In this document: one piece after another, positions 4,990 through 28,329 of the stretch
How positions within the stretch are numbered: position 1 is the first letter of the stretch
How the letters are laid out: every line of letters starts with the position of its first letter
Virus record (IMG/VR): IMGVR_UViG_3300050156_000143
Span: 160,001 to 224,000 of that record
DNA: 64,000 nucleotides
DNA from: a virus
Lineage: Duplodnaviria > Caudoviricetes
Reading direction: 5' to 3' (one strand)
Program-made: the position numbers and the translations under genes
Notes under the pieces: generated by a model
Databases searched by the model: none
Told to the model about the DNA's origin: nothing
What the model saw: the letters and a program-made list of their open reading frames with translations, nothing else

Positions 4990-5015
4990 AAAAAAGCGGC
5001 CTAGGCCGCTTTTTT
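4990..5015. terminator. intrinsic terminator (CCTAGG family)
   Basis: AAAAAAGCGGCCTAGGCCGCTTTTTT. Confidence 0.85.
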
Positions 5016-19514: not shown

Positions 19515-20774
19515 ATGGAACAAGATTACAACTTCATCGATGGCGTTCACGTTGGTATCAAAGCCTGGACTAAGGGTGTGCAAATGGAAGATGCTGCACG
19601 CCAACAATTGCTCAACATTTCATCACTGCCTTTTATCCATAGTCACATCGCGGTGATGCCCGATGTGCATTACGGTCTTGGTGCAACAATTGGCAGTGTG
19701 ATTGCCACAAAGGGCGCCATCGTTCCCGCTGCCGTGGGCGTTGATCTTGGCTGCGGTATGTTCGCACAACGCACGTCATTGGTCGCATCAGATTTGCCCG
19801 ACAACTTGCATGCCCTTCGCAGCAACATCGAGTCCAAGATTCCCCACGGTCGCACTAACAATGGCGGTCAAGGTGATCGCGGAGCGTGGCACAACGTTCC
19901 AGATGACGTTTACAAACGCTTGACTCCCAGTTTAACCGCATTGTCGGCCATCACTGAAAAACACCCCAAACTACAACGTGCGGCGCAACGTGCAGCAAAC
20001 CATTGTGGAACACTTGGTACTGGCAACCATTTTGTGGAAGTTTGCCTGGATGAGGAACAGCGTGTGTGGATCATGCTGCACTCGGGTTCACGTGGGATTG
20101 GCAACGCAATTGGCACTTATTTCATCGAACATGCTAAGAAAGATATGCAACGCTGGTTTATCAACTTGCCCGACCAAGATTTGGCATATATTCCGCAGGG
20201 TTCCGAGTTGTTTGACGACTACTGTCTGGCGTTAAAGTGGGCGCAAGATTATGCTCACATCAATCGCCAAGTCATGATGGATGCAGCGATGCGTGCTTTG
20301 ATTGAATCGGTGCCAAAACCGTTTACGTGCGACTGTGAATCGGTGCCAAAACCGTTTACGTGCGACTGTGAATCGGTCAATTGCCATCACAATTATGTGA
20401 ACTGGGAACGCCATTATGGGGAAAACGTGATGGTCACTCGTAAGGGCGCAGTCTCGGCACAGAAGGGGCAGTTTGGCATCATCCCCGGTAGCATGGGCGC
20501 AAAATCGTTCATTGTGAGTGGCAAAGGTAATCCAGAATCGTTTTGCTCATGTTCGCACGGAGCTGGGCGATCAATGTCTCGAACCGCAGCCAAAAAGAAA
20601 TTCACACTCAAAGACCACGAAATTGCCACCAATGGGGTTGAATGTCGAAAAGACGCGGACGTGATCGATGAAACCCCAATGGCGTACAAAGATATCGACG
20701 ATGTGATGAAGGCCCAAGAAAGCCTGGTGGACATCGTTCACACTTTGAAACAAATCGTGTGCGTGAAGGGGTGA
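19515..20774 (+). CDS. rtcB: RNA ligase RtcB
   Basis: MPDVHYG.GATIG, GVDLGCGM, GTGNHFVE, HSGSRG, CHHNY, PGSMG, SCSHGAGR, DE.P.AYKDI. Confidence 0.96.
   Translation: MEQDYNFIDGVHVGIKAWTKGVQMEDAARQQLLNISSLPFIHSHIAVMPDVHYGLGATIGSVIATKGAIVPAAVGVDLGCGMFAQRTSLVASDLPDNLHALRSNIESKIPHGRTNNGGQGDRGAWHNVPDDVYKRLTPSLTALSAITEKHPKLQRAAQRAANHCGTLGTGNHFVEVCLDEEQRVWIMLHSGSRGIGNAIGTYFIEHAKKDMQRWFINLPDQDLAYIPQGSELFDDYCLALKWAQDYAHINRQVMMDAAMRALIESVPKPFTCDCESVPKPFTCDCESVNCHHNYVNWERHYGENVMVTRKGAVSAQKGQFGIIPGSMGAKSFIVSGKGNPESFCSCSHGAGRSMSRTAAKKKFTLKDHEIATNGVECRKDADVIDETPMAYKDIDDVMKAQESLVDIVHTLKQIVCVKG
20303..20377 (+). repeat. exact 33-nt in-frame tandem duplication within rtcB
   Basis: TGAATCGGTGCCAAAACCGTTTACGTGCGACTG x2 + TGAATCGGT (ESVPKPFTCDC x2). 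Confidence 0.95.
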
Positions 20775-20778
20775 CACA

Positions 20779-21036
20779 ATGGACGAAACCGACTTAGCCA
20801 ATTTGTTACTCAACGATGTCCCAATAGAAATTGGCGAACGGGTGCAAATCATCAGCGGGGAATATTCTGGCAGAGTCGGAACGGTGTATGACGTGAATTC
20901 CGTGCGTGGCACTCAAACACTGGTCAAGGCACATCTAGATCAACCAGTGGACGGGCCATATTTATACGGCATGCTGCATATACACATTAGGCGCAAACAT
21001 GTAATTCGACACTGGGGGCAACATGGGAGAAATTGA
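20779..21036 (+). CDS. SH3/KOW-like small paralogue 1
   Basis: MDETDLANLLL...IEIGERVQI...IRHWG. Confidence 0.8.
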   Translation: MDETDLANLLLNDVPIEIGERVQIISGEYSGRVGTVYDVNSVRGTQTLVKAHLDQPVDGPYLYGMLHIHIRRKHVIRHWGQHGRN

Positions 21037-21271
21037 GCTAGCAAATTTACTCATGGGTGGAATTACCGTGGGTGATCGAGTTAGAGTTATTGACGCAGGG
21101 AAATCGGGAGGGTACTACAATGACGGTGAAACGGGAACGGTTCTAAGGGATGACACTATGAAAGATGACACAATATATGTGCAGTTCGATGCACACTGCG
21201 TTGCTCCCAACCGAAACGCTAACAATACTGCCTGGGTAAATGCAATGGCAGTCGAGAGAATCTGGGAGTAA
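21023..21271 (+). CDS. SH3/KOW-like small paralogue 2
   Basis: EIELANLLMGGITVGDRVRV...GETGTV...ERIWE. Confidence 0.8.
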   Translation: MGEIELANLLMGGITVGDRVRVIDAGKSGGYYNDGETGTVLRDDTMKDDTIYVQFDAHCVAPNRNANNTAWVNAMAVERIWE

Positions 21272-21274
21272 AAC

Positions 21275-21541
21275 ATGAACGAAAACGATGTTGCAAATTT
21301 GTTGTTACAAGACTTGCAATTTGAAGTGGGAGAACGGGTTGTCATACGAGATAATCCAATTGGGCAAGCTGCTGGAGTATGGTACGAAGGTGGAGAAACG
21401 GGGGTTATCCGTAACACTAGTATTCGCCATCCATGTGTTAAGTTTGATTTACCCAATCCCAAGTTGAAACGATTCGTCAATCACAATGGAGAACATTATT
21501 GTCACGTTGACATACGCGATCTTCGTCGTCATTGGGAGTAA
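21275..21541 (+). CDS. SH3/KOW-like small paralogue 3
   Basis: ENDVANLLLQDLQFEVGERVVI...GETGVI...RRHWE. Confidence 0.8.
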   Translation: MNENDVANLLLQDLQFEVGERVVIRDNPIGQAAGVWYEGGETGVIRNTSIRHPCVKFDLPNPKLKRFVNHNGEHYCHVDIRDLRRHWE

Positions 21542-21544
21542 ACG

Positions 21545-21832
21545 ATGGATGAAACGTTTTTGGCAAAGTTATTGATAGGTGAATTCCAAGTTGGCGACAG
21601 AGTACAAGTCAAGTTTGGAACAAACGTTTTTGGGTATCGTGATGGCGCAACTGGCCGAATTGTCCTCATGAATCCAAATCACCCACAACGGATTTGTGCC
21701 GTTTCTTTCGACGATCCTCAAGCCATCGCAGCATCGCCAGCTAAATTAACATATAAAGAATTCGAGAATTGCCGCTGGTGCCCTGAACACCATCTAACTT
21801 ATTATTGGGAATCCGATGACACAACCTTCTGA
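21545..21832 (+). CDS. SH3/KOW-like small paralogue 4
   Basis: DETFLAKLLIGEFQVGDRVQV...GATGRI...TYYWE. Confidence 0.8.
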   Translation: MDETFLAKLLIGEFQVGDRVQVKFGTNVFGYRDGATGRIVLMNPNHPQRICAVSFDDPQAIAASPAKLTYKEFENCRWCPEHHLTYYWESDDTTF

Positions 21833-22073
21833 ACACGATGTTGCCAAAATGTTACTACACGGTACTCCATTTTCTGTTGGAGATCGGGTGGAAGTGACAT
21901 TCACATGCGACTATTACGCTAGTGGAGAACGGGGCACCATTGTGCTCGCCACAGACAGCGACGCTTACATAACGTTTGACCCACAATACGTGAACAAACA
22001 TCGATACCCATTCAATGGTCGTCCAAACTGCGCGAATGCAATTACCCAGTTTCTAACACATTGTTGGGATTAA
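21816..22073 (+). CDS. SH3/KOW-like small paralogue 5
   Basis: EHDVAKMLLHGTPFSVGDRVEV...GERGTI...THCWD. Confidence 0.8.
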   Translation: MTQPSEHDVAKMLLHGTPFSVGDRVEVTFTCDYYASGERGTIVLATDSDAYITFDPQYVNKHRYPFNGRPNCANAITQFLTHCWD

Positions 22074-22074
22074 G

Positions 22075-22287
22075 ATGGACGGAAACGTTTTAGCCAGCAT
22101 TCTCTTAACCGGGGTTCCGTATCAGGTTGGGGACAAGGTTCAAATAACCCACGAACATTGCCGCACTGGCGTTATTCATGAACTTCATAAACTAAACTCT
22201 GGTGATTCGTATGCCGTAGTTCAATTAGATGACTGCACAAGACGATACGTCCATGTCAGAATCTTAAACCATTATTTTGGAGAATAA
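22075..22287 (+). CDS. SH3/KOW-like small paralogue 6
   Basis: NVLASILLTGVPYQVGDKVQI...NHYFGE. Confidence 0.8.
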   Translation: MDGNVLASILLTGVPYQVGDKVQITHEHCRTGVIHELHKLNSGDSYAVVQLDDCTRRYVHVRILNHYFGE

Positions 22288-22288
22288 A

Positions 22289-22705
22289 ATGAGTCAAACT
22301 GTTAAAAACCTTGTAATTCACGGTGTTGAATGGCGAATTGGGGATGAATTCTATTTCGTGCATCCCTACGAAATAGGACACAACCGGAAAGTGGTTGGGA
22401 TTGATGATAATGGCCTGGTACACGATTGCCACAATGGGAACAAACGGATTTGTGATCCTGCCAAAACACGTAATGGGGCAGTCTTCTACATCAATGTCGG
22501 TCACCAAGCTAGACTGACGGCAAAATTCCGCAAACCTGGTTTGTTGGTAAAAATGTCCGATGCGGAATTTATTCGGCGAAAACACGAGGTGGACAAAGCC
22601 ATGATTGCTTGCAAAATCGGGGGTTTCATCACGAATGCAACTATTATCTACACACTGGCAAAAATCAATATCAGAAAACATCGAATTGGCCTGGGACGAC
22701 TGTGA
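22289..22705 (+). CDS. hypothetical protein
   Basis: GGAG SD before ATG 22289. Confidence 0.7.
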   Translation: MSQTVKNLVIHGVEWRIGDEFYFVHPYEIGHNRKVVGIDDNGLVHDCHNGNKRICDPAKTRNGAVFYINVGHQARLTAKFRKPGLLVKMSDAEFIRRKHEVDKAMIACKIGGFITNATIIYTLAKINIRKHRIGLGRL

Positions 22706-23133
22706 AGGATCAGGCCGAAGTTACCCTCAACCAGTACGATCAACTTGTCTTTTACCGTGATTTACACCCTAGCCCTCCCATGAAAACACTATCTGATTTC
22801 CCGGTATTGGAAATTTTGGACAGGGTGGTTTTCAAAAATGGCGAACAAGGCATCTATCTCGGGGAAATGCGTGCAGGGAGTAAACGAGAACTATGCGCTG
22901 CGTTTATCGTCAATGATGGTCGCCACCCAAAATACATTCAGCCATCGGCAGTTCACCAATACGTTTCACACGTGTTCTCCCATGATGTTGAACATACTGT
23001 CAAAAATGGTATCAATTTTGCAACAAATTGCATGTACCGTGGAAAACTAAAATGGGAAGCACCATCGCTACGGTTAAAAGAAATTGACGAGCAGATTGCA
23101 AAATTGATGGAAGAACGTAGCAAGCTACTGTGA
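22702..23133 (+). CDS. hypothetical protein
   Basis: GTGA overlap; C-terminal coiled coil. Confidence 0.7.
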   Translation: MKDQAEVTLNQYDQLVFYRDLHPSPPMKTLSDFPVLEILDRVVFKNGEQGIYLGEMRAGSKRELCAAFIVNDGRHPKYIQPSAVHQYVSHVFSHDVEHTVKNGINFATNCMYRGKLKWEAPSLRLKEIDEQIAKLMEERSKLL

Positions 23134-23134
23134 C

Positions 23135-23159
23135 AAAAAGCGGCATAGGCCGCTTTTTT
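23135..23159. terminator. intrinsic terminator (CCTAGG family variant)
   Basis: AAAAAGCGGC-ATAG-GCCGCTTTTTT. Confidence 0.85.
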
Positions 23160-23230
23160 CATGATCCACCAAATTTATTTTCATTTTTTTCACCATTTTG
23201 TTGAAAAATGTGGTGAACTGTGGTTAAATA

Positions 23231-23845
23231 CCTGCTGTGAGGGAGTTCCTACCTTGTCCCTCACAATGACCGGGGCATGACTCACCCTTACCGTGTATTC
23301 TCTCTGATCCGTGCGGAAAGCCAATTCATTTTGGTGGGGAAGCTGGATGACAAAATTAGTAGGACGATAGAGGTACAGGCCATATCAAAATGGCTTATTT
23401 AAGCTAGCAAAATTAGGAATAAAACCCATGTCACGAAAGTGATGATGGCAGTGTGAACAAGTTGGGGTATATCAAATCATATACCACCCTGGTGGATTCC
23501 AGGTTCAACAATGCGGATGAACGAGCACTGTGCAACTGATAATTGCAAACATCGGGAATAAAGGAGATGCTGGCCATCGGGTTCGGATACTGCATTAAAT
23601 TGCGACTTCGTAATGTGAATAGATAGACCCCCATAAGAACGTCTGTGCTATCTCACACCCTGCGAAGGTATCCGAACCCAATGAATATCACGTTTGCGCG
23701 TGAGTCTCACTCATGTCCAAATTTAATTGAGTTAAAAATTTTAAGTTAAATTATTCTTTGTAAAATGATTTATAAGGAAGGCGAGCGCAGCGAAGCAAGC
23801 GAGTATTCCTTATAAATCACAGCGACTGTCAAGTCGGCTGTCTTC
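23231..23845 (+). ncRNA. putative large structured non-coding RNA or cis-element
   Basis: Begins right after TAAATA (23225); many hairpins and long-range inverted repeats; no credible + ORF. Confidence 0.45.
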
Positions 23846-24470
23846 TTATTTGATTACCTTTCTCTCAAACGTGTTTATTCAATGTGATGAATAAAACCGA
23901 AAAGGCCACAATTGTGTCCAAATTTTTTTTATTTTTCTGGTTTAAGGTGGGTTGGAAACCTTGACGGAAAAGGTGTAGGGGGAAATTTCCAAAAACGAGT
24001 GATAGATGTATTTCCCAAAATTTTTCCCGGTGAAATTAAAGGCAAAAAACACCTATGAAATTTATAGGTTATCGGTCAAGCGAACAAGTCGCTCGCCCAG
24101 TTTTTGGCAAATCGCCCTCGATCGCTACGCTCACGAGTTCGCTTCACCAAAAACAAATCAGGAAATAAAGTTTTTCAAGAAACCGGGAAAAATCATAGCG
24201 AAAACAATGTCCTTCATCAGTTCAAAAATTCACCCAACGACCTGGAAATCGGCTCATGAATTTGCACAATGATGACAAAAATTTTTTGAAAAAATACAGA
24301 CACCCGCATGTAAAGTTTTGTAAAACCGGTTGACAAAAGTTGAAAACACTATGGGGCGCGGGACGGCGCCGCGCCAGAAAATTTTTCTCATGGAAAACAG
24401 TGATCGGGGTTCCGTTTTTGTGTGAAAATCTGATTTTCATGGGCCAACTGTGCCCAGCCCGGTTTTATCT
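23846..24470. other. non-coding region with A/T homopolymer tracts, candidate origin or terminus region
   Basis: Dense A/T runs; CGCTACGCTC motif at about 24124; ORFs here look spurious. Confidence 0.35.
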
Positions 24471-24484
24471 ACTTTTGGAGAATT

Positions 24485-24709
24485 GTGATGGATGAATTTG
24501 AATGTGCGAATTTGTTACTAAGTGGGCAATCATTTAAGATATCTGATAGTGTCCAACTAACTGCGGACACATATCCGCCCGTTCCGAATGGTGCAAATGG
24601 GGTGATCATAGCGAGAAACATCCGTAACACTCAGTATTACGTGCAATTCTCTTGTTTGCATTCTTGCGCACTGGTGGAATCCGCCCATTTGTCGTATTGT
24701 TGGGTGTAA
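24485..24709 (+). CDS. SH3/KOW-like small paralogue 7
   Basis: DEFECANLLLSGQSFKISDSVQL...GANGVI...SYCWV; GGAG SD. Confidence 0.8.
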   Translation: MMDEFECANLLLSGQSFKISDSVQLTADTYPPVPNGANGVIIARNIRNTQYYVQFSCLHSCALVESAHLSYCWV

Positions 24710-24711
24710 TA

Positions 24712-24918
24712 ATGATCGAACGTACATGTCATGGTGGTAAACACTTTTTTGCAAAGTTGGCGGACATAAAGCGTGGCTGGGCCAACAGTTGTAGTAAATC
24801 TTGTGCTGCACATACTAGGGAAAACCGATTGGGTCGCAATGGATATCGTGGGGTCAACGTGGCAAAATTCTTTAATGCCCACCTTTGCAGTAACAAAGAT
24901 TTGGATCGTAACAAATGA
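24712..24918 (+). CDS. small Zn-ribbon-like phage protein
   Basis: RTCHGGKHF.A..ADIKRGWA..CSKSCAA. Confidence 0.6.
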   Translation: MIERTCHGGKHFFAKLADIKRGWANSCSKSCAAHTRENRLGRNGYRGVNVAKFFNAHLCSNKDLDRNK

Positions 24919-25151
24919 GTGATGAAATTGACGAAAATGCGCTGGCCTCTATATTGGCAGGTGATTTCCAAGTTGGGGATCGGGTTGCCCCCAGGGTCAA
25001 GTCGCGGCGGTGGATTGGGATGGTCGATAGTGTTGTTAATGGCCGCTATGGCTCGTTCGTGATTGTTAGGGTACGAGGATACACTGGGTGTATTCGGTGT
25101 GTGCCGACCGATCTCGAACATTATTTCGGAGAAACCGATGAATCACGATGA
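24915..25151 (+). CDS. SH3/KOW-like small paralogue 8
   Basis: DENALASILAGDFQVGDRV...EHYFGE. Confidence 0.8.
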   Translation: MSDEIDENALASILAGDFQVGDRVAPRVKSRRWIGMVDSVVNGRYGSFVIVRVRGYTGCIRCVPTDLEHYFGETDESR

Positions 25152-25395
25152 TATTGTGAGTATTCTGCGAGGTGGGTTTGCCGTTGGGGATATCGTGATT
25201 GCCATTCGCATCATGCGTTCACGCAACAAAGTGATCGTGAACCCTGGTGATGTTGGCGTGGTGGATCGCGTACTGGATAATGGGTGTTGCGTGGTATTGT
25301 TCACTATGGAACTAAACTATCCGGGGTTTGAACCTTATGTGACTACGATTTACGCACCGATAGACCGCTATCTTCGCTACTATTACAAGGATTAA
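25138..25395 (+). CDS. SH3/KOW-like small paralogue 9
   Basis: DDIVSILRGGFAVGDIV...GDVGVV...RYYYKD. Confidence 0.75.
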   Translation: MNHDDIVSILRGGFAVGDIVIAIRIMRSRNKVIVNPGDVGVVDRVLDNGCCVVLFTMELNYPGFEPYVTTIYAPIDRYLRYYYKD

Positions 25396-25396
25396 T

Positions 25397-25645
25397 ATGG
25401 ACGAGATCGAATGTGCCAATTTGCTTAGGGGTGATTTTCAAGTGGGTGACAAAGTGCGACTTGCCGATCATTATGTCAATCAATTTCCGCACACCAAAGA
25501 AGAAGCGGGCCACCTGGCATGGCATGGTAAGGTGATTGCCACATCTTGTGTTCCAGTATCCCGTTGTCTATCCCATTGTCTGGTGCTTTATGGTGACACC
25601 ACGGAGTGGTAACCTGTAAGTAATCTGACATATTGCTGGGACTGA
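25397..25645 (+). pseudogene. SH3/KOW-like paralogue 10 with premature TAA at 25610
   Basis: DEIECANLLRGDFQVGDKVRL...TEW*PVSNLTYCWD*; the read-through part restores the family YCW tail. Confidence 0.65.
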
Positions 25646-25743
25646 CAGTGCCCCCACGATGTCCTCACATTGTTGTCAACTTTTATCGCACGATGCCGAC
25701 CGTTGTGGTTATACTGGCACCACTTTAACCAAAGGAGAGTTCT

Positions 25744-26730
25744 GTGAAACGAGTTTTTGTTGCTTTTTTGATGACGCTGGCGATGACGCTAGCTCACGCC
25801 TTGCCGAGTCCGCGTGATGTGGAATTTCAGTTGCAAAGCGGCAACTACGCCGCTGCAAGGGCAATGGTGGTGGAAGTGTTGCAAGCCAAACCCGACAGTG
25901 CTCAGGCTCATCTGTTGAAGGCTGCTATTTTGGTGGATAGTGATCGCAACATGTCGGCTGCACGTTCCGAGCTAGAATTGGTGAAAACGTTGGATCAAAA
26001 TGGCAAGACCGTGAATTCACCGTTGATGAACCGGTTGCAGTCAACCGTGAATGCGTTTTACGCTGAACGACAAATCGCTCAGTCGAAGTTGCAATCTGTT
26101 CCTCAACCCGTACCCCAAGTTGTTCAACCACCCGTACAACATCAGGTGGCTCTTGCAAACGAATCTTCGGGTATTGGATTCTGGGTATTGATCCTCATCC
26201 TGGTACTGGCAGCAGGTTTCGCTCTGTACCGAATTCTCCGGCAACATGAATTGGAACGTGTGGTATCGGGTGGTCGAACCACTCGCAAAAATGATGAAGT
26301 GGACGATTATTTGGCCCGATCGAGCTATTCGGCCCCGTCTGCTTCATCGTATACGCCACCTGTACCCGCACCTGTACCCACGCCGTATGTTCGCACTGAA
26401 CGTCATGTGGTTCACCATGAGCATCACTATGACAATACTGGTGGCGCAATGAGTGCGGGCATTGGCGCAGCTATTGGTGCAGGTGTGGGCGTACTGGCAG
26501 CAGAAACATTGTTGCATTCTGATCGTCATTCTGCCCCCGCGCCTTATTCACCCCCGTATTCACCACCTGTTTCTACCTCTGTGGCGCCAACCTATAGCAG
26601 CGGTTCTTCATCGTGGGATGATGAGCGTTCGTCCAGGACTTATGACAGTGGGTCGAGTTCATGGGATAATGCGCCAAGCCCATCGTCAAGCTCAAGTTCT
26701 GACTCTGACTCTGGTTCTAGTGACTGGTGA
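25744..26730 (+). CDS. exported TPR-repeat membrane protein with Ser/Pro-rich tail
   Basis: Signal peptide, TPR-like ARAMVVEVLQAKPDSAQAHLL, TM segment, GAGIGAAIGAGVG, S/D-rich tail ending in W. Confidence 0.75.
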   Translation: MKRVFVAFLMTLAMTLAHALPSPRDVEFQLQSGNYAAARAMVVEVLQAKPDSAQAHLLKAAILVDSDRNMSAARSELELVKTLDQNGKTVNSPLMNRLQSTVNAFYAERQIAQSKLQSVPQPVPQVVQPPVQHQVALANESSGIGFWVLILILVLAAGFALYRILRQHELERVVSGGRTTRKNDEVDDYLARSSYSAPSASSYTPPVPAPVPTPYVRTERHVVHHEHHYDNTGGAMSAGIGAAIGAGVGVLAAETLLHSDRHSAPAPYSPPYSPPVSTSVAPTYSSGSSSWDDERSSRTYDSGSSSWDNAPSPSSSSSSDSDSGSSDW

Positions 26731-26741
26731 TTGAACAATAG

Positions 26742-26766
26742 AAAAAGCGGCCTAGGCCGCTTTTTT
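26742..26766. terminator. intrinsic terminator (CCTAGG family)
   Basis: AAAAAGCGGCCTAGGCCGCTTTTTT. Confidence 0.85.
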
Positions 26767-26790
26767 GGCAAACTAAGCAAAGATTGCATC

Positions 26791-27165
26791 ATGAATTTAA
26801 CCAAGATTGTTCGTCGGGTTCGTAAAGCGTCTGAAGCAGCGATGAACGCACGGTGGTTTTCACCTTATAACGCCATTTTGATCTCCACTTTGTCTCAAAC
26901 GGAGCATGCGGTCTACGTTGCAAACAAAATGGGGCTAGAATACTCCCCAATTGTAGTAACACATTTCAGTTTGGGTGAATTTACTCGTCGCCAAGTGGCC
27001 GATGCAACGGAAACTGATGTGTTTTGTGGCGATAACGCTTGTTGTTTACTGGTGGGCGATGATGAAATGAACCGTTGGCACAATTGGGGTGATACTCCTG
27101 ACAGTTATTTTGACTCTGAACAAGTTCGATGTGAAGTGCAATCCAGGTATGCCACAGTATCTTAA
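26791..27165 (+). CDS. hypothetical protein
   Basis: ORF downstream of terminator. Confidence 0.6.
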   Translation: MNLTKIVRRVRKASEAAMNARWFSPYNAILISTLSQTEHAVYVANKMGLEYSPIVVTHFSLGEFTRRQVADATETDVFCGDNACCLLVGDDEMNRWHNWGDTPDSYFDSEQVRCEVQSRYATVS

Positions 27166-27337
27166 ATATTGTCCGTTTTGTAAGCATGTTCCGCCAATAG
27201 ATTATGAAACTGTTCACCGTGTTGACATAATGGGGACAGTTTGGCGCGCAGGTTGTGATAACTGTGATGCGTCGATCTTGGCAGATTCTGAACTTGAAGC
27301 GATCGAGAAATGGAACACCCGTGTTAACGACGATTGA
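27149..27337 (+). CDS. Lar-family restriction alleviation-like Zn-finger protein
   Basis: CPFC...CDNC.A...EAIEKWNTRV. Confidence 0.7.
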   Translation: MPQYLKYCPFCKHVPPIDYETVHRVDIMGTVWRAGCDNCDASILADSELEAIEKWNTRVNDD

Positions 27338-27350
27338 CTCAAATTTGGTG

Positions 27351-27578
27351 ATGTGGTTGGATGTTCAAAGCACCATAAAACCAATTTCGGTTCCTCGTGC
27401 AAAGAAGGCGCAGAAAAAACTGCTGGCCATCGTGGGTTGGATGGATTTGCACCAGATTCCACACGAAACGTGGACATTGAACAACGGATTGGGTGATATT
27501 GCAGAGATTCGGTTTGCGCAATCAGCGTTCTCTGACAAGTTGGTGGAAGAATTTTGTAATCTATTTTGTGAGGAATGA
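27351..27578 (+). CDS. hypothetical protein (start uncertain)
   Basis: In frame with ORF 27255..27578. Confidence 0.55.
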   Translation: MWLDVQSTIKPISVPRAKKAQKKLLAIVGWMDLHQIPHETWTLNNGLGDIAEIRFAQSAFSDKLVEEFCNLFCEE

Positions 27579-27581
27579 TGA

Positions 27582-27815
27582 ATGAACCCGGTTCCAAGAT
27601 ATTGGTGGAAAATGGATACCAAGAATAATCAGATAGTGGTTCATTCTGACTACCCAGGTGGGCGCAATTTGGCCGCATTCGGGTTCGTGGAAGATGCGGA
27701 TGAAGGTATTGCTCAAGCTGAACGTCTAATTTCGGATTATCGTGCGGGTAGGGCAACTCCAACGTTTACCAGGTTTACCGGTGCTGGTGTGAGTGGTTAT
27801 AGGGGATACAAATGA
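27582..27815 (+). CDS. hypothetical protein
   Basis: GAGGA SD; ATGA coupling. Confidence 0.65.
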   Translation: MNPVPRYWWKMDTKNNQIVVHSDYPGGRNLAAFGFVEDADEGIAQAERLISDYRAGRATPTFTRFTGAGVSGYRGYK

Positions 27816-28021
27816 GATTTGGTGAGTTTTTGTATTGGTACACTGTTATGTGTGTGGTGGTTTGGGTAATGGGTTCGTGTTTGGTCAGTGTTTTTGCGGC
27901 GGATTATTTCTCGTTTGATGCCACCGTTTCAGCATTCATATTGCAACCGTTGGCTGGGATGATTGGGTTGGTTGTGTCAAAATGCACTTATCATGAAGTT
28001 TGGGAAAGGATTCGAGAATGA
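27812..28021 (+). CDS. small membrane protein
   Basis: Two hydrophobic helices. Confidence 0.65.
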   Translation: MRFGEFLYWYTVMCVVVWVMGSCLVSVFAADYFSFDATVSAFILQPLAGMIGLVVSKCTYHEVWERIRE

Positions 28022-28329
28022 CGCCAGAAGATGACCTGATATCGGTGTTGCGTGGCTTTCAGCGCGGTGATTTGGTTACGGTTGACCCAGCTTGTCTGGC
28101 CCCGGATTGGAAAGGAATGCGATCCATGCGAACGTGTTGCGATCGTGACGTGTGGTGGCGGCCACCAGGCACGGATTCAATTCGGGAATTTGCGGCCAAA
28201 CAATCTGCATTGGTGACGGAGAGTTCACTCGAACCACGGTGGCTTGTTTGCTTGCTACTAGACGGTAGTTCGGTTTGGCTGTTCTCAGATGAAATTATCC
28301 ATTTCTATCCAGGTAGTGATCTACGGTGA
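28018..28329 (+). CDS. SH3/KOW-like small paralogue 11
   Basis: EDDLISVLRGFQRGDLVTV...IIHFY. Confidence 0.65.
   Translation: MTPEDDLISVLRGFQRGDLVTVDPACLAPDWKGMRSMRTCCDRDVWWRPPGTDSIREFAAKQSALVTESSLEPRWLVCLLLDGSSVWLFSDEIIHFYPGSDLR

Follow-up and report, generated by a model that had tools for sequence, protein, structure and literature searches.

The eleven small genes on the plus strand between positions 20779 and 28329 belong to a lineage-specific family of about 42 small SH3/KOW-type barrel proteins, encoded by an uncultivated phage lineage from leaf litter. The source genome is a complete 277-kb T4-type jumbo myophage, and the 42 copies of the family take up 3.7% of it. Taken as a whole, our proposal is that a lineage-specific set of SH3/KOW barrels has been multiplied by duplication, is kept by purifying selection and could provide cytoplasmic binders for host takeover or counter-defence, and we give this reading a probability of about 0.5. 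Jumbo phages carry hundreds of genes without assigned function, and with some 42 copies of a single fold, retained by selection and differing mainly in two loops, this family ranks among the largest expansions of paralogues observed in phages.

The window copies and the wider family

The eleven open reading frames reported in the first-pass annotation were all found, on the plus strand of the window (the whole stretch of 64,000 nucleotides that was analysed). They share the motifs named there: a helix at the N-terminus, two strands with the patterns GD.V and G..G.V, and an aromatic motif at the C-terminus. L10, G17 and D18 are conserved in at least 90% of 41 domains. Their kinship is far above chance, since an HMM trained solely on these eleven copies recovered about 30 unseen members among the 4,138 ORFs of the genome (E 4e-14 to 1e-3); an independent tool gave 42 family matches. 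The members of the eleven-gene family are genuine and its size needs correction, eleven being about a quarter of the total. The proteins of the family are 59-105 aa long and mostly acidic (pI below 7 in 38 of the 41 domains).

Copies 1 to 6 form an array that is retained one-to-one and in the same gene order in a sibling phage, 87% identical. Copy 1 (20779..21036, 85 aa) starts 4 nt past the stop codon of RtcB and is the most KOW-like member; its sibling orthologue is 93% identical, with a dN/dS of 0.25. Copy 2 (21023..21271, 82 aa, HMM E 9e-26) overlaps it by 14 nt (76% identity to the orthologue, dN/dS 0.28). Copy 3 (21275..21541, 88 aa), identified as an ORF with an HMM match, shows 69% identity and a dN/dS of 0.30, with the greatest divergence in the C-terminal half, and the stretch 21409-21546 did not align in one metagenome contig. 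Copy 4 (21545..21832, 95 aa) was the representative chosen for modelling, and its orthologue P0151 is 79% identical (dN/dS 0.34). Copies 5 (21816..22073, 85 aa, overlapping copy 4 by 17 nt) and 6 (22075..22287, 70 aa, with the shortest loops of this array), both ORFs with HMM matches, show 85% and 88% identity and dN/dS values of 0.47 and 0.16, respectively.

The four genes annotated at 24485-25645 are also present, but they are not an uninterrupted set of intact copies: an unrelated basic ORF of 66 aa (24718-24918) separates copies 7 and 8, and copy 10 stops at 25612. Copy 7 (24488..24709), which has an HMM match, is 73 aa long when read from its ATG at 24488, with an alternative GTG start at 24485; it is the first gene past a gene-free stretch of 1.3 kb, has a GGAG 8 nt upstream and forms a pair with copy 10 in the tree (support 97/76). 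Copy 8 (24915..25151, 78 aa, HMM E 6e-16) is covered by related metagenome contigs, and copy 9 (25138..25395, 85 aa, HMM E 4e-20), overlapping copy 8 by 14 nt, had no homologue beyond its own genome in a collection of 5.8 billion sequences. Three-frame translation of copy 10 (25397..25645) gave an open frame of 71 aa (25397-25612) ended by a premature in-frame TAA (25610-25612), behind which the C-terminal motif typical of the family (here L-T-Y-C-W-D) continues up to a TGA (25643-25645). The profile match runs through the stops, and this is a nonsense-truncated or decaying copy. Copy 11 (28018..28329, 103 aa; ORF and HMM match), the most divergent in the window, belongs to a 'LRGF.xGD ... W.FSDEI.H.Y' subfamily and carries an insert of about 40 residues in the strand 1-2 loop. 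The Pth2 gene lies directly downstream of it, its orthologue P0156 is 83% identical, and synteny is kept in three metagenomes.

Intergenic spacing at the gene junctions ranges from -17 to +3 nt, and the junctions make up the direct-repeat family D3. At 21525..21547 (plus strand), for example, the codons TGG GAG TAA that end one copy precede the ATG of the following copy by 6-10 nt and are its Shine-Dalgarno site. The same arrangement recurs on this strand at 21010-21025, 21260-21277, 21800-21818, 22060-22077, 25125-25140 and 25382-25399. To judge from its sequence, this layout points to translational coupling. Because the final codons double as the ribosome-binding site of the paralogue that follows, their nucleotide sequence is held constant, and part of the C-terminal constancy is thus a constraint on DNA.

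The transcription unit of RtcB and copies 1-6 ends at a bidirectional intrinsic terminator (23135..23159), and that of copies 7-10 and a TPR protein at its twin (26742-26765); the genome contains this palindrome at 8 sites. The neighbours of the window arrays are RtcB, a Lar-like protein and Pth2 (PTH2), with tRNA genes nearby. It had also been noted that the array brackets a large non-coding region. The copies do flank it, but the region is a separate locus unrelated to the family; it is repeated, in inverted orientation (97.5%), 106 kb away.

Predicted fold and putative binding surface

The AlphaFold2 model of copy 4 (pLDDT 85.7, pTM 0.73) has a helix at residues 3-11 followed by strands at 19-22, 36-43, 50-55, 76-80 and 84-86. 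The model of copy 11 (pLDDT 68.7) presents a helix and five strands in the same order, and in both the DSSP order has a helical turn linking strand 4 to strand 5. Hence, the elements of a small barrel are found, namely five strands, loops of the RT-, n-Src- and distal-like types, and a short 3-10 turn preceding the last strand. Compared with the PDB, the copy 4 model matched 216 chains at Z of at least 5, whose top rows were all SH3, KOW, Tudor or CAP-Gly, and the best values (Z 8.3-7.5) all corresponded to SH3/KOW/Tudor-type barrels; a PDB profile search matched the KOW domains of Spt5, NusG and L24, as well as YdhK. According to these models, the members are five-stranded SH3/KOW-type barrels capped by an N-terminal amphipathic helix. 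The common SH3/KOW-like scaffold suggested earlier is therefore borne out by the AlphaFold check, with a shared fold predicted for copies 4 and 11. The helix had been taken as a common docking element, but it is more simply explained as part of the fold, since it is continuous with strand 1, contributes a near-invariant leucine to the core and has fair confidence in the models.

The description of fixed ends around a variable middle agrees with the mean pairwise identity, which is 40% over the N-terminal 24 positions, 13% in the middle and 23% at the C-terminus. The constant parts, comprising the helix, strands 1 (F.VGD.V) and 2 (G..G.V), and strand 5 with its H-Y-Y/W aromatic motif, would form the folding core. 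Variation is concentrated in two loops, the strand 1-2 (RT-like) loop, of 1-37 residues (median 12), and the strand 3-4 (distal-like) loop, of 0-23 residues, and these would be the variable parts of the barrel. SH3, KOW and Tudor domains make their partner contacts through those loop surfaces.

We propose that the proteins could bind different proteins of the host or of competitors stoichiometrically in the cytoplasm, as inhibitors, decoys or adaptors, acting in host takeover or counter-defence and co-expressed with RtcB, the Lar-like protein and Pth2. We infer this putative binding-repertoire or anti-defence function from the placement of the loops, the acidity and these neighbours, and the binder step from analogy with SH3-fold domains and a weak guilt by association. 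If the copies do bind different host proteins, they would be host-takeover or counter-defence factors of a new class and a compact natural scaffold for protein binders.

An alternative is that the proteins are KOW mimics which, as free domains, vie with the KOW domains of NusG-type proteins for binding to Rho, ribosomal protein S10 or RNA polymerase, or bind RNA, and so reprogramme host expression. The structural matches to Spt5 and NusG KOW domains (Z 8.1-7.1) and the PDB profile matches fit this idea, as do the RNA- and translation-related neighbours RtcB, Pth2 and the tRNA genes. Copy 1 also matched Pfam KOW (PF00467) at E 7.5e-4, and one further member of the 41 did so at E of 0.01 or below. 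Nevertheless, both matches are sub-threshold (19.7 bits at best, for copy 1, with a gathering cut-off of 22.3), and the contiguous signature of about 27 residues over strands 1-2 is present in copy 1 only, being split in most copies by as many as 37 inserted loop residues. In addition, acidity argues against RNA binding, 42 copies with differing loops are hard to square with one conserved target, and Tudor, CAP-Gly, PsaE and Xrn1-SH3 are structural matches at least as good as KOW. We consider this explanation unlikely.

The copies might also form a candidate library of modular adaptors, in which the constant helix and C-terminal face dock on a common hub while the variable loops capture differing host proteins. 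The hub could be, for instance, a host protease, RNA polymerase or a phage factor, and the targets host defence or housekeeping proteins. If true, this would be an innate, germline-encoded binder repertoire with which one jumbo phage neutralises many targets or hosts, and we regard it as quite improbable.

Selection, distribution and origin

Over the six orthologue pairs of copies 1-6, dN/dS ranged from 0.16 to 0.47 (bootstrap upper bounds 0.26-0.56), with 0.10 for RtcB; these are gene- or segment-level values computed from two sequences per pair. The tested copies are genuine genes held by purifying selection. Pooled by segment, dN/dS was 0.17 at the N-end, 0.42 in the middle and 0.30 at the C-end. 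The middles are under relaxed purifying selection without detectable positive selection, and 'hypervariable', as they had been called, is too strong a word.

None of 15 related phage genomes or contigs contains the family. No match was obtained in RAY, PA5oct, Phosso, pEa_SNUABM_19 or Vibrio phage 2.275.O, nor any family match in 10 IMG/VR relatives (many of them fragments, one a complete genome of 525 kb), where the sole hit was marginal (E 0.006, inside an ORF of 6,407 aa). Among the best 150 matches from 1.84 billion representatives, the full-length single-domain ones were self or sibling only. With 42 copies here and none in the relatives examined, this is a lineage-specific expansion, and the copy-number comparison confirms that these are not single-copy housekeeping proteins, the family being confined to one phage lineage.

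Individual copies may be dispensable, because copy 10 is truncated and a pair elsewhere in the genome has been fused through a stop-codon change into the sole two-domain protein of the family, which in the sibling is still two separate genes. The whole family could thus be a largely dispensable by-product of recombination-prone tandem arrays, made of cheap copies with little individual function. The truncation, the apparently accidental fusion, the relaxed middles and the failure to find homologues outside the lineage would all fit. However, dN/dS is well below 1 in every tested copy, the paralogues are intact despite ancient divergence, the sibling has retained every copy of the six-gene array, both window arrays are covered in four independent metagenomes, and 3.7% of the genome is given to the family. 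This possibility is accordingly rated as unlikely; if the copies were dispensable, they would illustrate the inflation of jumbo-phage genomes by tandem arrays whose translation signals are coupled.

Besides the possible dispensability of individual copies, two observations weigh against the binder proposal. The loops, with dN/dS below 1, give no sign of the arms-race signature often seen in anti-defence binders, and some arrays elsewhere adjoin structural genes, so that a 'host-takeover region' does not describe all copies. One such array precedes the tail-sheath gene by 2 kb, on the same strand. This location, together with the strikingly constant first 12 or so residues of all copies, would suit virion cargo, that is, proteins packaged and injected with the DNA like the T4 internal proteins, with the N-terminal helix as a capsid- or particle-targeting signal. 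This seems very unlikely, given that the helix is modelled as an integral barrel cap, the family alignment has no conserved protease-type cleavage motif behind it, the acidity differs from that of DNA-associated internal proteins, and the window arrays share operons with RtcB, the Lar-like protein and Pth2, not with head genes.

In the tree, terminal branches have a median length of 1.1 substitutions per site, and the window copies interleave with those of other arrays. The family probably arose by old tandem duplication, dispersal and divergence, after which each copy would have been kept by purifying selection. Duplication and divergence had been suggested from the lack of a reverse transcriptase or template repeat, and this still stands because neither was found: no RVT_1 in the complete genome, in a search whose positive-control genomes gave matches, and no template-like nucleotide repeat, the paralogues sharing just about 30 nt at 66-75% identity. 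A diversity-generating retroelement or similar programmed hypermutation, which the constant ends and variable middles might recall, is effectively refuted by these two results, by large loop indels and by natural variants in metagenome contigs that differ by ordinary transitions in all four directions and are not adenine-specific.

Comparison with known systems

No member scored above threshold in Pfam, PHROGs or PADLOC; in PADLOC-DB, one of the 41 members gave a marginal match (HamC DUF3223, E 0.0064). The family is currently invisible to annotation and merits its own Pfam or PHROGs profile.

KOW, Mind-bomb SH3 and Xrn1 SH3 domains are fold-level neighbours only. The KOW domains of NusG, Spt5 and ribosomal L24/L26 share the five-stranded barrel (Z 8.1, rmsd 2.3 and 57 aligned residues for Spt5 KOW6-7; Z 7.1 for NusG) and the GD.V.V ... 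G..G.V pattern, clearest in copy 1, whereas the phage proteins interrupt this signature with a variable loop, add an N-terminal helix and a C-terminal aromatic motif, and are stand-alone, acidic and massively multiplied. SH3_15 (PF18346, Mind-bomb/HERC2) and SH3_12 (PF18129, Xrn1) are carried by the best-matched long multi-repeat proteins, and the barrels are similar (Mib1 Z 7.0, Xrn1 Z 7.6). However, each had one sub-threshold match among the 41 members (E 0.0023 for SH3_15, whose assignment takes 24 bits and tandem repeats in one polypeptide), the barrel core alone matches (profile positions ~14-73), without helix or C-terminal motif, and the repeats there lie in one long polypeptide, while here each domain has a separate gene.

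Among structural analogues that align over the full length, the best is YorP of the Bacillus prophage SPbeta (PDB 2HEQ; Z 7.5, 74 aligned residues, model residues 2-95). Together with DUF4314, DUF4926 and phrog_2827/7571/7955, it represents SH3-like phage proteins that stand alone, measure about 80 aa and have no assigned function, and the BFVD matches are likewise small uncharacterised SH3-like phage proteins. These YorP-type proteins differ in their sequence (~19% identity), are single-copy and lack the N-helix and C-motif signature; the PHROG matches were weak (E 1e-3 to 1e-2, few members).

Finally, Bacillus phage G encodes about 35 copies of a zinc-ribbon domain, called unprecedented and proposed to be specific binders in a study that does not describe the present family (Iyer et al. 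2021, PMC7824862). Both cases present tens of copies of a small domain within one jumbo-phage lineage, although the phage group differs, the domain is a zinc ribbon there and an SH3-like barrel here, and the present family is acidic and not DNA-binding in character.

Extent and fold of the SH3-like family

The assembly of the source record (277,516 bp, IMG/VR) is complete, as its two ends share a 127-bp overlap with 100% identity. Among the products of this genome are a T4-type family-B DNA polymerase, a tail sheath of 1,204 aa, proteins of the baseplate wedge and hub, and an SbcC-like nuclease. Its large terminase shares 52% identity with that of Pseudomonas phage PA5oct (Arenbergviridae), and its RtcB shares 64% with RtcB of the Erwinia Ea35-70/RAY group. 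Next to the baseplate genes, beyond the limits of the window, the minus strand carries one open frame of 4,734 aa (genome 91147-105348). DNA near-identical to the source phage is present in leaf-litter and freshwater metagenomes, and a sibling phage, 87% identical, is found as short contigs in JGI metagenomes.

The eleven small genes on the + strand reported by the first-pass annotation are present in the ORF listing (copies 1-11, numbered 5' to 3'). Copies 1-6 are six back-to-back genes (20779-22287), beginning 4 nt past the end of the RtcB RNA-ligase gene, and copy 11 (28018-28329) is immediately 5' of the Pth2 peptidyl-tRNA hydrolase gene. The array of copies 7-10 (24488-25645) is interrupted between copies 7 and 8 by an unrelated ORF (24718-24918) encoding a basic, Cys/His-containing protein of 66 aa, which is preceded by a family-type junction sequence and is not assigned to the family by the profile. 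BLASTP identity between pairs of the eleven is just 25-40% and is best across the first ~25 residues. Nevertheless, when the 4,138 six-frame ORFs of the genome were searched with a profile made from the eleven alone, about 30 members not seen before came up (E 4e-14 to 1e-3), and an independent six-frame search gave 42 matches. Hence, this is a genuine family, about four times as large as the first reading could show. Its arrays are found at 0.1-5 kb, 19 kb, 27 kb, 47-56 kb (minus strand), 122 kb, 180.8-188.3 kb (copies 1-11), and 253.7-255.7 kb of the genome, and together they take up 3.7% of it.

Two members have unusual open frames. Copy 10 presents an in-frame TAA eleven codons ahead of the ancestral stop, with the family motif still preserved beyond it, and is probably decaying. 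Separately, a two-domain family protein at genome 122231-122716 (stretch L005, 732-1217) corresponds in the sibling to two adjacent genes of 79 and 83 aa; the stop codon between the domains reads Tyr here, and the first domain has no ATG start.

The AlphaFold2 model of copy 4, built on the alignment of 41 family domains, is confident (pLDDT 85.7, pTM 0.73) and presents a helix at residues 3-11 followed by five strands, with a short helical turn ahead of the last one. Copy 11, the most divergent of the eleven, is predicted with moderate confidence (pLDDT 68.7) to have its helix and strands in this same order; the ~40 residues inserted between its first two strands are modelled poorly. A run with two copies of copy 4 scored 0.08 for self-association (mark, 0.42), which counts neither for nor against it. 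SH3-type barrels lead an exhaustive structural comparison, and none stands out above the others: the Hpy99I N-domain (Z 8.3), Spt5 KOW6-7 (Z 8.1), Xrn1 SH3 (Z 7.6), and the SPbeta prophage protein YorP (Z 7.5), aligned along the entire length, followed at lower Z by Tudor, CAP-Gly, NusG, PsaE, and Mib1 domains. Foldseek searches of PDB, BFVD, and Atlas agree with this ranking, though no match in PDB or BFVD reached E <= 0.001; the feature neighbours in Atlas are unnamed clusters at 0.91, within the noise range stated by the tool itself.

At the sequence level, a profile search of PDB sequences matched Spt5 KOW domains and YdhK. No member passed the curated Pfam cut-off, and the sub-threshold matches were to KOW (2/41 members), SH3_15 (1/41), and SH3_12 (1/41); neither PHROGs nor PADLOC claimed any member. 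In a search of 1.84 billion representatives, the top of the list consists of long, many-repeat proteins of the SH3_15 or SH3_12 type, which align at the barrel core only; among the best 150 matches, short proteins matching the full profile, with the helix and the C-terminal motif, come only from this genome or the sibling phage. The fold is known, the protein family is undescribed, and its lineage-specific expansion is unusually large.

Constant ends, variable middles, and selection

Mean pairwise identity among the 41 domains is 40% over the N-terminal 24 profile positions, 13% in the middle, and 23% in the C-terminal part. The loop joining strands 1 and 2 has 1-37 residues, and the one joining strands 3 and 4 has 0-23. 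In SH3-fold domains generally, loops at these places are the RT-like and distal-like loops, which give the binding surface its shape. Of the 41 domains, 38 are acidic (pI 4.1-6.6), which argues against general nucleic-acid binding. The resemblance to Spt5 KOW domains would fit KOW mimics directed at the transcription-translation machinery, but with such acidity, and with KOW not standing out among the SH3-type barrels, this explanation seems unlikely.

The constant N-terminal helix was first read as a common docking element. It holds Leu10, which is almost invariant, and leads directly into the GD.V strand, so it is more simply read as capping the hydrophobic core than as a separate docking element. 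Regarding the C-terminal end, neighbouring family genes are spaced by -17 to +3 nt and the last codons (TGG GAG, TGG GAT, or GGA GAA) lie 6-10 nt ahead of the next ATG, forming its Shine-Dalgarno site. Part of the constancy of this end is a constraint at the nucleotide level.

Comparison with the sibling gives an estimate of selection. One of its contigs (L011) is 87% identical across 2,949 nt to window 20462-23430 and keeps the six genes in unchanged order; dN/dS per orthologue pair in this array is 0.16-0.47, and 0.10 for the RtcB C-terminus. When 13 orthologue pairs, drawn from three loci, are taken together, dN/dS is 0.17 for the N-end (95% bootstrap 0.10-0.26), 0.42 for the middle (0.32-0.56), and 0.30 for the C-end (0.16-0.55). 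The middles are still under net purifying selection despite changing about 2.5 times faster, and a few positively selected sites are possible given that two sequences are compared. The truncation of copy 10 would fit largely dispensable by-products of the arrays, but with dN/dS at these values this explanation is unlikely.

The arrays are also stable in nature. Contigs from four independent runs span the whole of 19.5-29.5 kb, with both arrays, and show no rearrangement where one gene meets the next; the array of copies 7-10 is covered at 80-99% identity. Three further metagenomes keep the gene order around copy 11 (Lar-like, 77 aa, 69 aa, family member, Pth2). For the copies of the window, no exchange between close relatives at the conserved junctions was observed. 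The one odd join among the contigs, 21409 to 21546, starts within copy 3, away from any junction, and probably reflects the highly diverged back half of this gene. In a collection of 5.8 billion, copy 9 has no homologue beyond its own genome.

Genomic neighbourhood and proposed function

A bidirectional terminator, present at 23135 and again at 26742, delimits the transcription units. This is a perfect palindrome, A5-GCGGCCTAGGCCGC-T5, with about eight sites (window 23135-23159, 26742-26765, and 4996-5009; genome 1348, 28295, 38322, 67583, and 245645). A scan for sigma-70-type promoters gave about as many sites as chance predicts (19 against 17.9), and the T4 late-promoter word TATAAATA is rarer than expected (5 against ~18). 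Over-represented words trace to the common terminator and to an unrelated repeat of ~32 nt, with core GCAGTGAATGCAGTGTA and GTTGTCTGCGTCAGT ahead of it. The latter has about nine genome sites, most of which lie on the minus strand, as do window 663 and 3731; about seven are elsewhere in the genome. It is not found close to the SH3 arrays and may be a promoter or regulatory site.

The array neighbours are RtcB, a Lar-like protein, Pth2, a TPR membrane protein, and seven tRNA genes upstream. The Lar-like gene (27089-27337, 82 aa), kept in sibling contigs, matches Pfam Lar_restr_allev (E 7.8e-7, 29.7 bits against a cut-off of 28.6) and is a candidate restriction-alleviation gene. The arrays of the window sit in an accessory, host-interaction neighbourhood. 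Elsewhere in the genome one family array adjoins the tail-sheath gene, as virion cargo targeted by the N-terminal helix might, but with that helix modelled as a core cap this is unlikely. The family is best read as a repertoire of small acidic proteins that would bind other proteins in host takeover or counter-defence.

Two nearby genes show sequence changes of their own. RtcB carries an exact 33-bp tandem duplication (20303-20368), giving an in-frame 11-residue repeat, which is missing in a related freshwater population (contig join 20302 to 20336). At 22289-23133, where this phage has two overlapping ORFs in different frames (138 aa; 117-174 aa), the sibling has just one ORF, of 249 aa, with a C-terminus that itself moves into a third frame; contigs from two runs join 22516 to 22720. 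In at least one of the two phages, this gene is either split or riddled with indels.

The gene-free stretch flanked by the arrays (1.3 kb, 23160-24487) is unrelated to the SH3-like family. Of this stretch, 354 bp (23995-24345) are found again in inverted orientation at genome 76885-77238 with 97.5% identity, and a further 69 bp (window 23447-23515) match genome 77637-77705 at 77%. The flanks are far more diverged than the 354-bp repeat, which points to a functional element or to gene conversion in the recent past. Rfam gave nothing credible within 18-30 kb.

Origin and distribution of the family

In the maximum-likelihood tree, terminal branches are long (median 1.1 substitutions per site) and window copies are interleaved with those of other arrays, the sole pairing being copies 7 and 10. 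The duplications are thus old, and the copies have become dispersed. The genome contains no reverse transcriptase or template-like repeat, and the natural variants are ordinary transitions; this bears out the proposal of duplication and divergence as the mechanism and excludes a diversity-generating retroelement.

The family was not found in RAY, PA5oct, Phosso, pEa_SNUABM_19, or Vibrio phage 2.275.O. Ten IMG/VR relatives (~60% terminase identity, many of the records fragments, one a complete 525-kb genome) gave zero family matches, the only hit being marginal (E 0.006) within a 6,407-aa ORF; the identical search yields 42 matches in the phage's own genome. Megablast of a 10-kb stretch and tblastn of copy 4 had no match among 50,697 phage records, a set from which the source record itself may have been removed, and a scan of metagenome contigs with the neighbouring TPR protein revealed no relative. 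The nearest precedent in kind for this expansion is Bacillus phage G, with about 35 zinc-ribbon copies, an expansion termed unprecedented (Iyer et al. 2021, PMC7824862).
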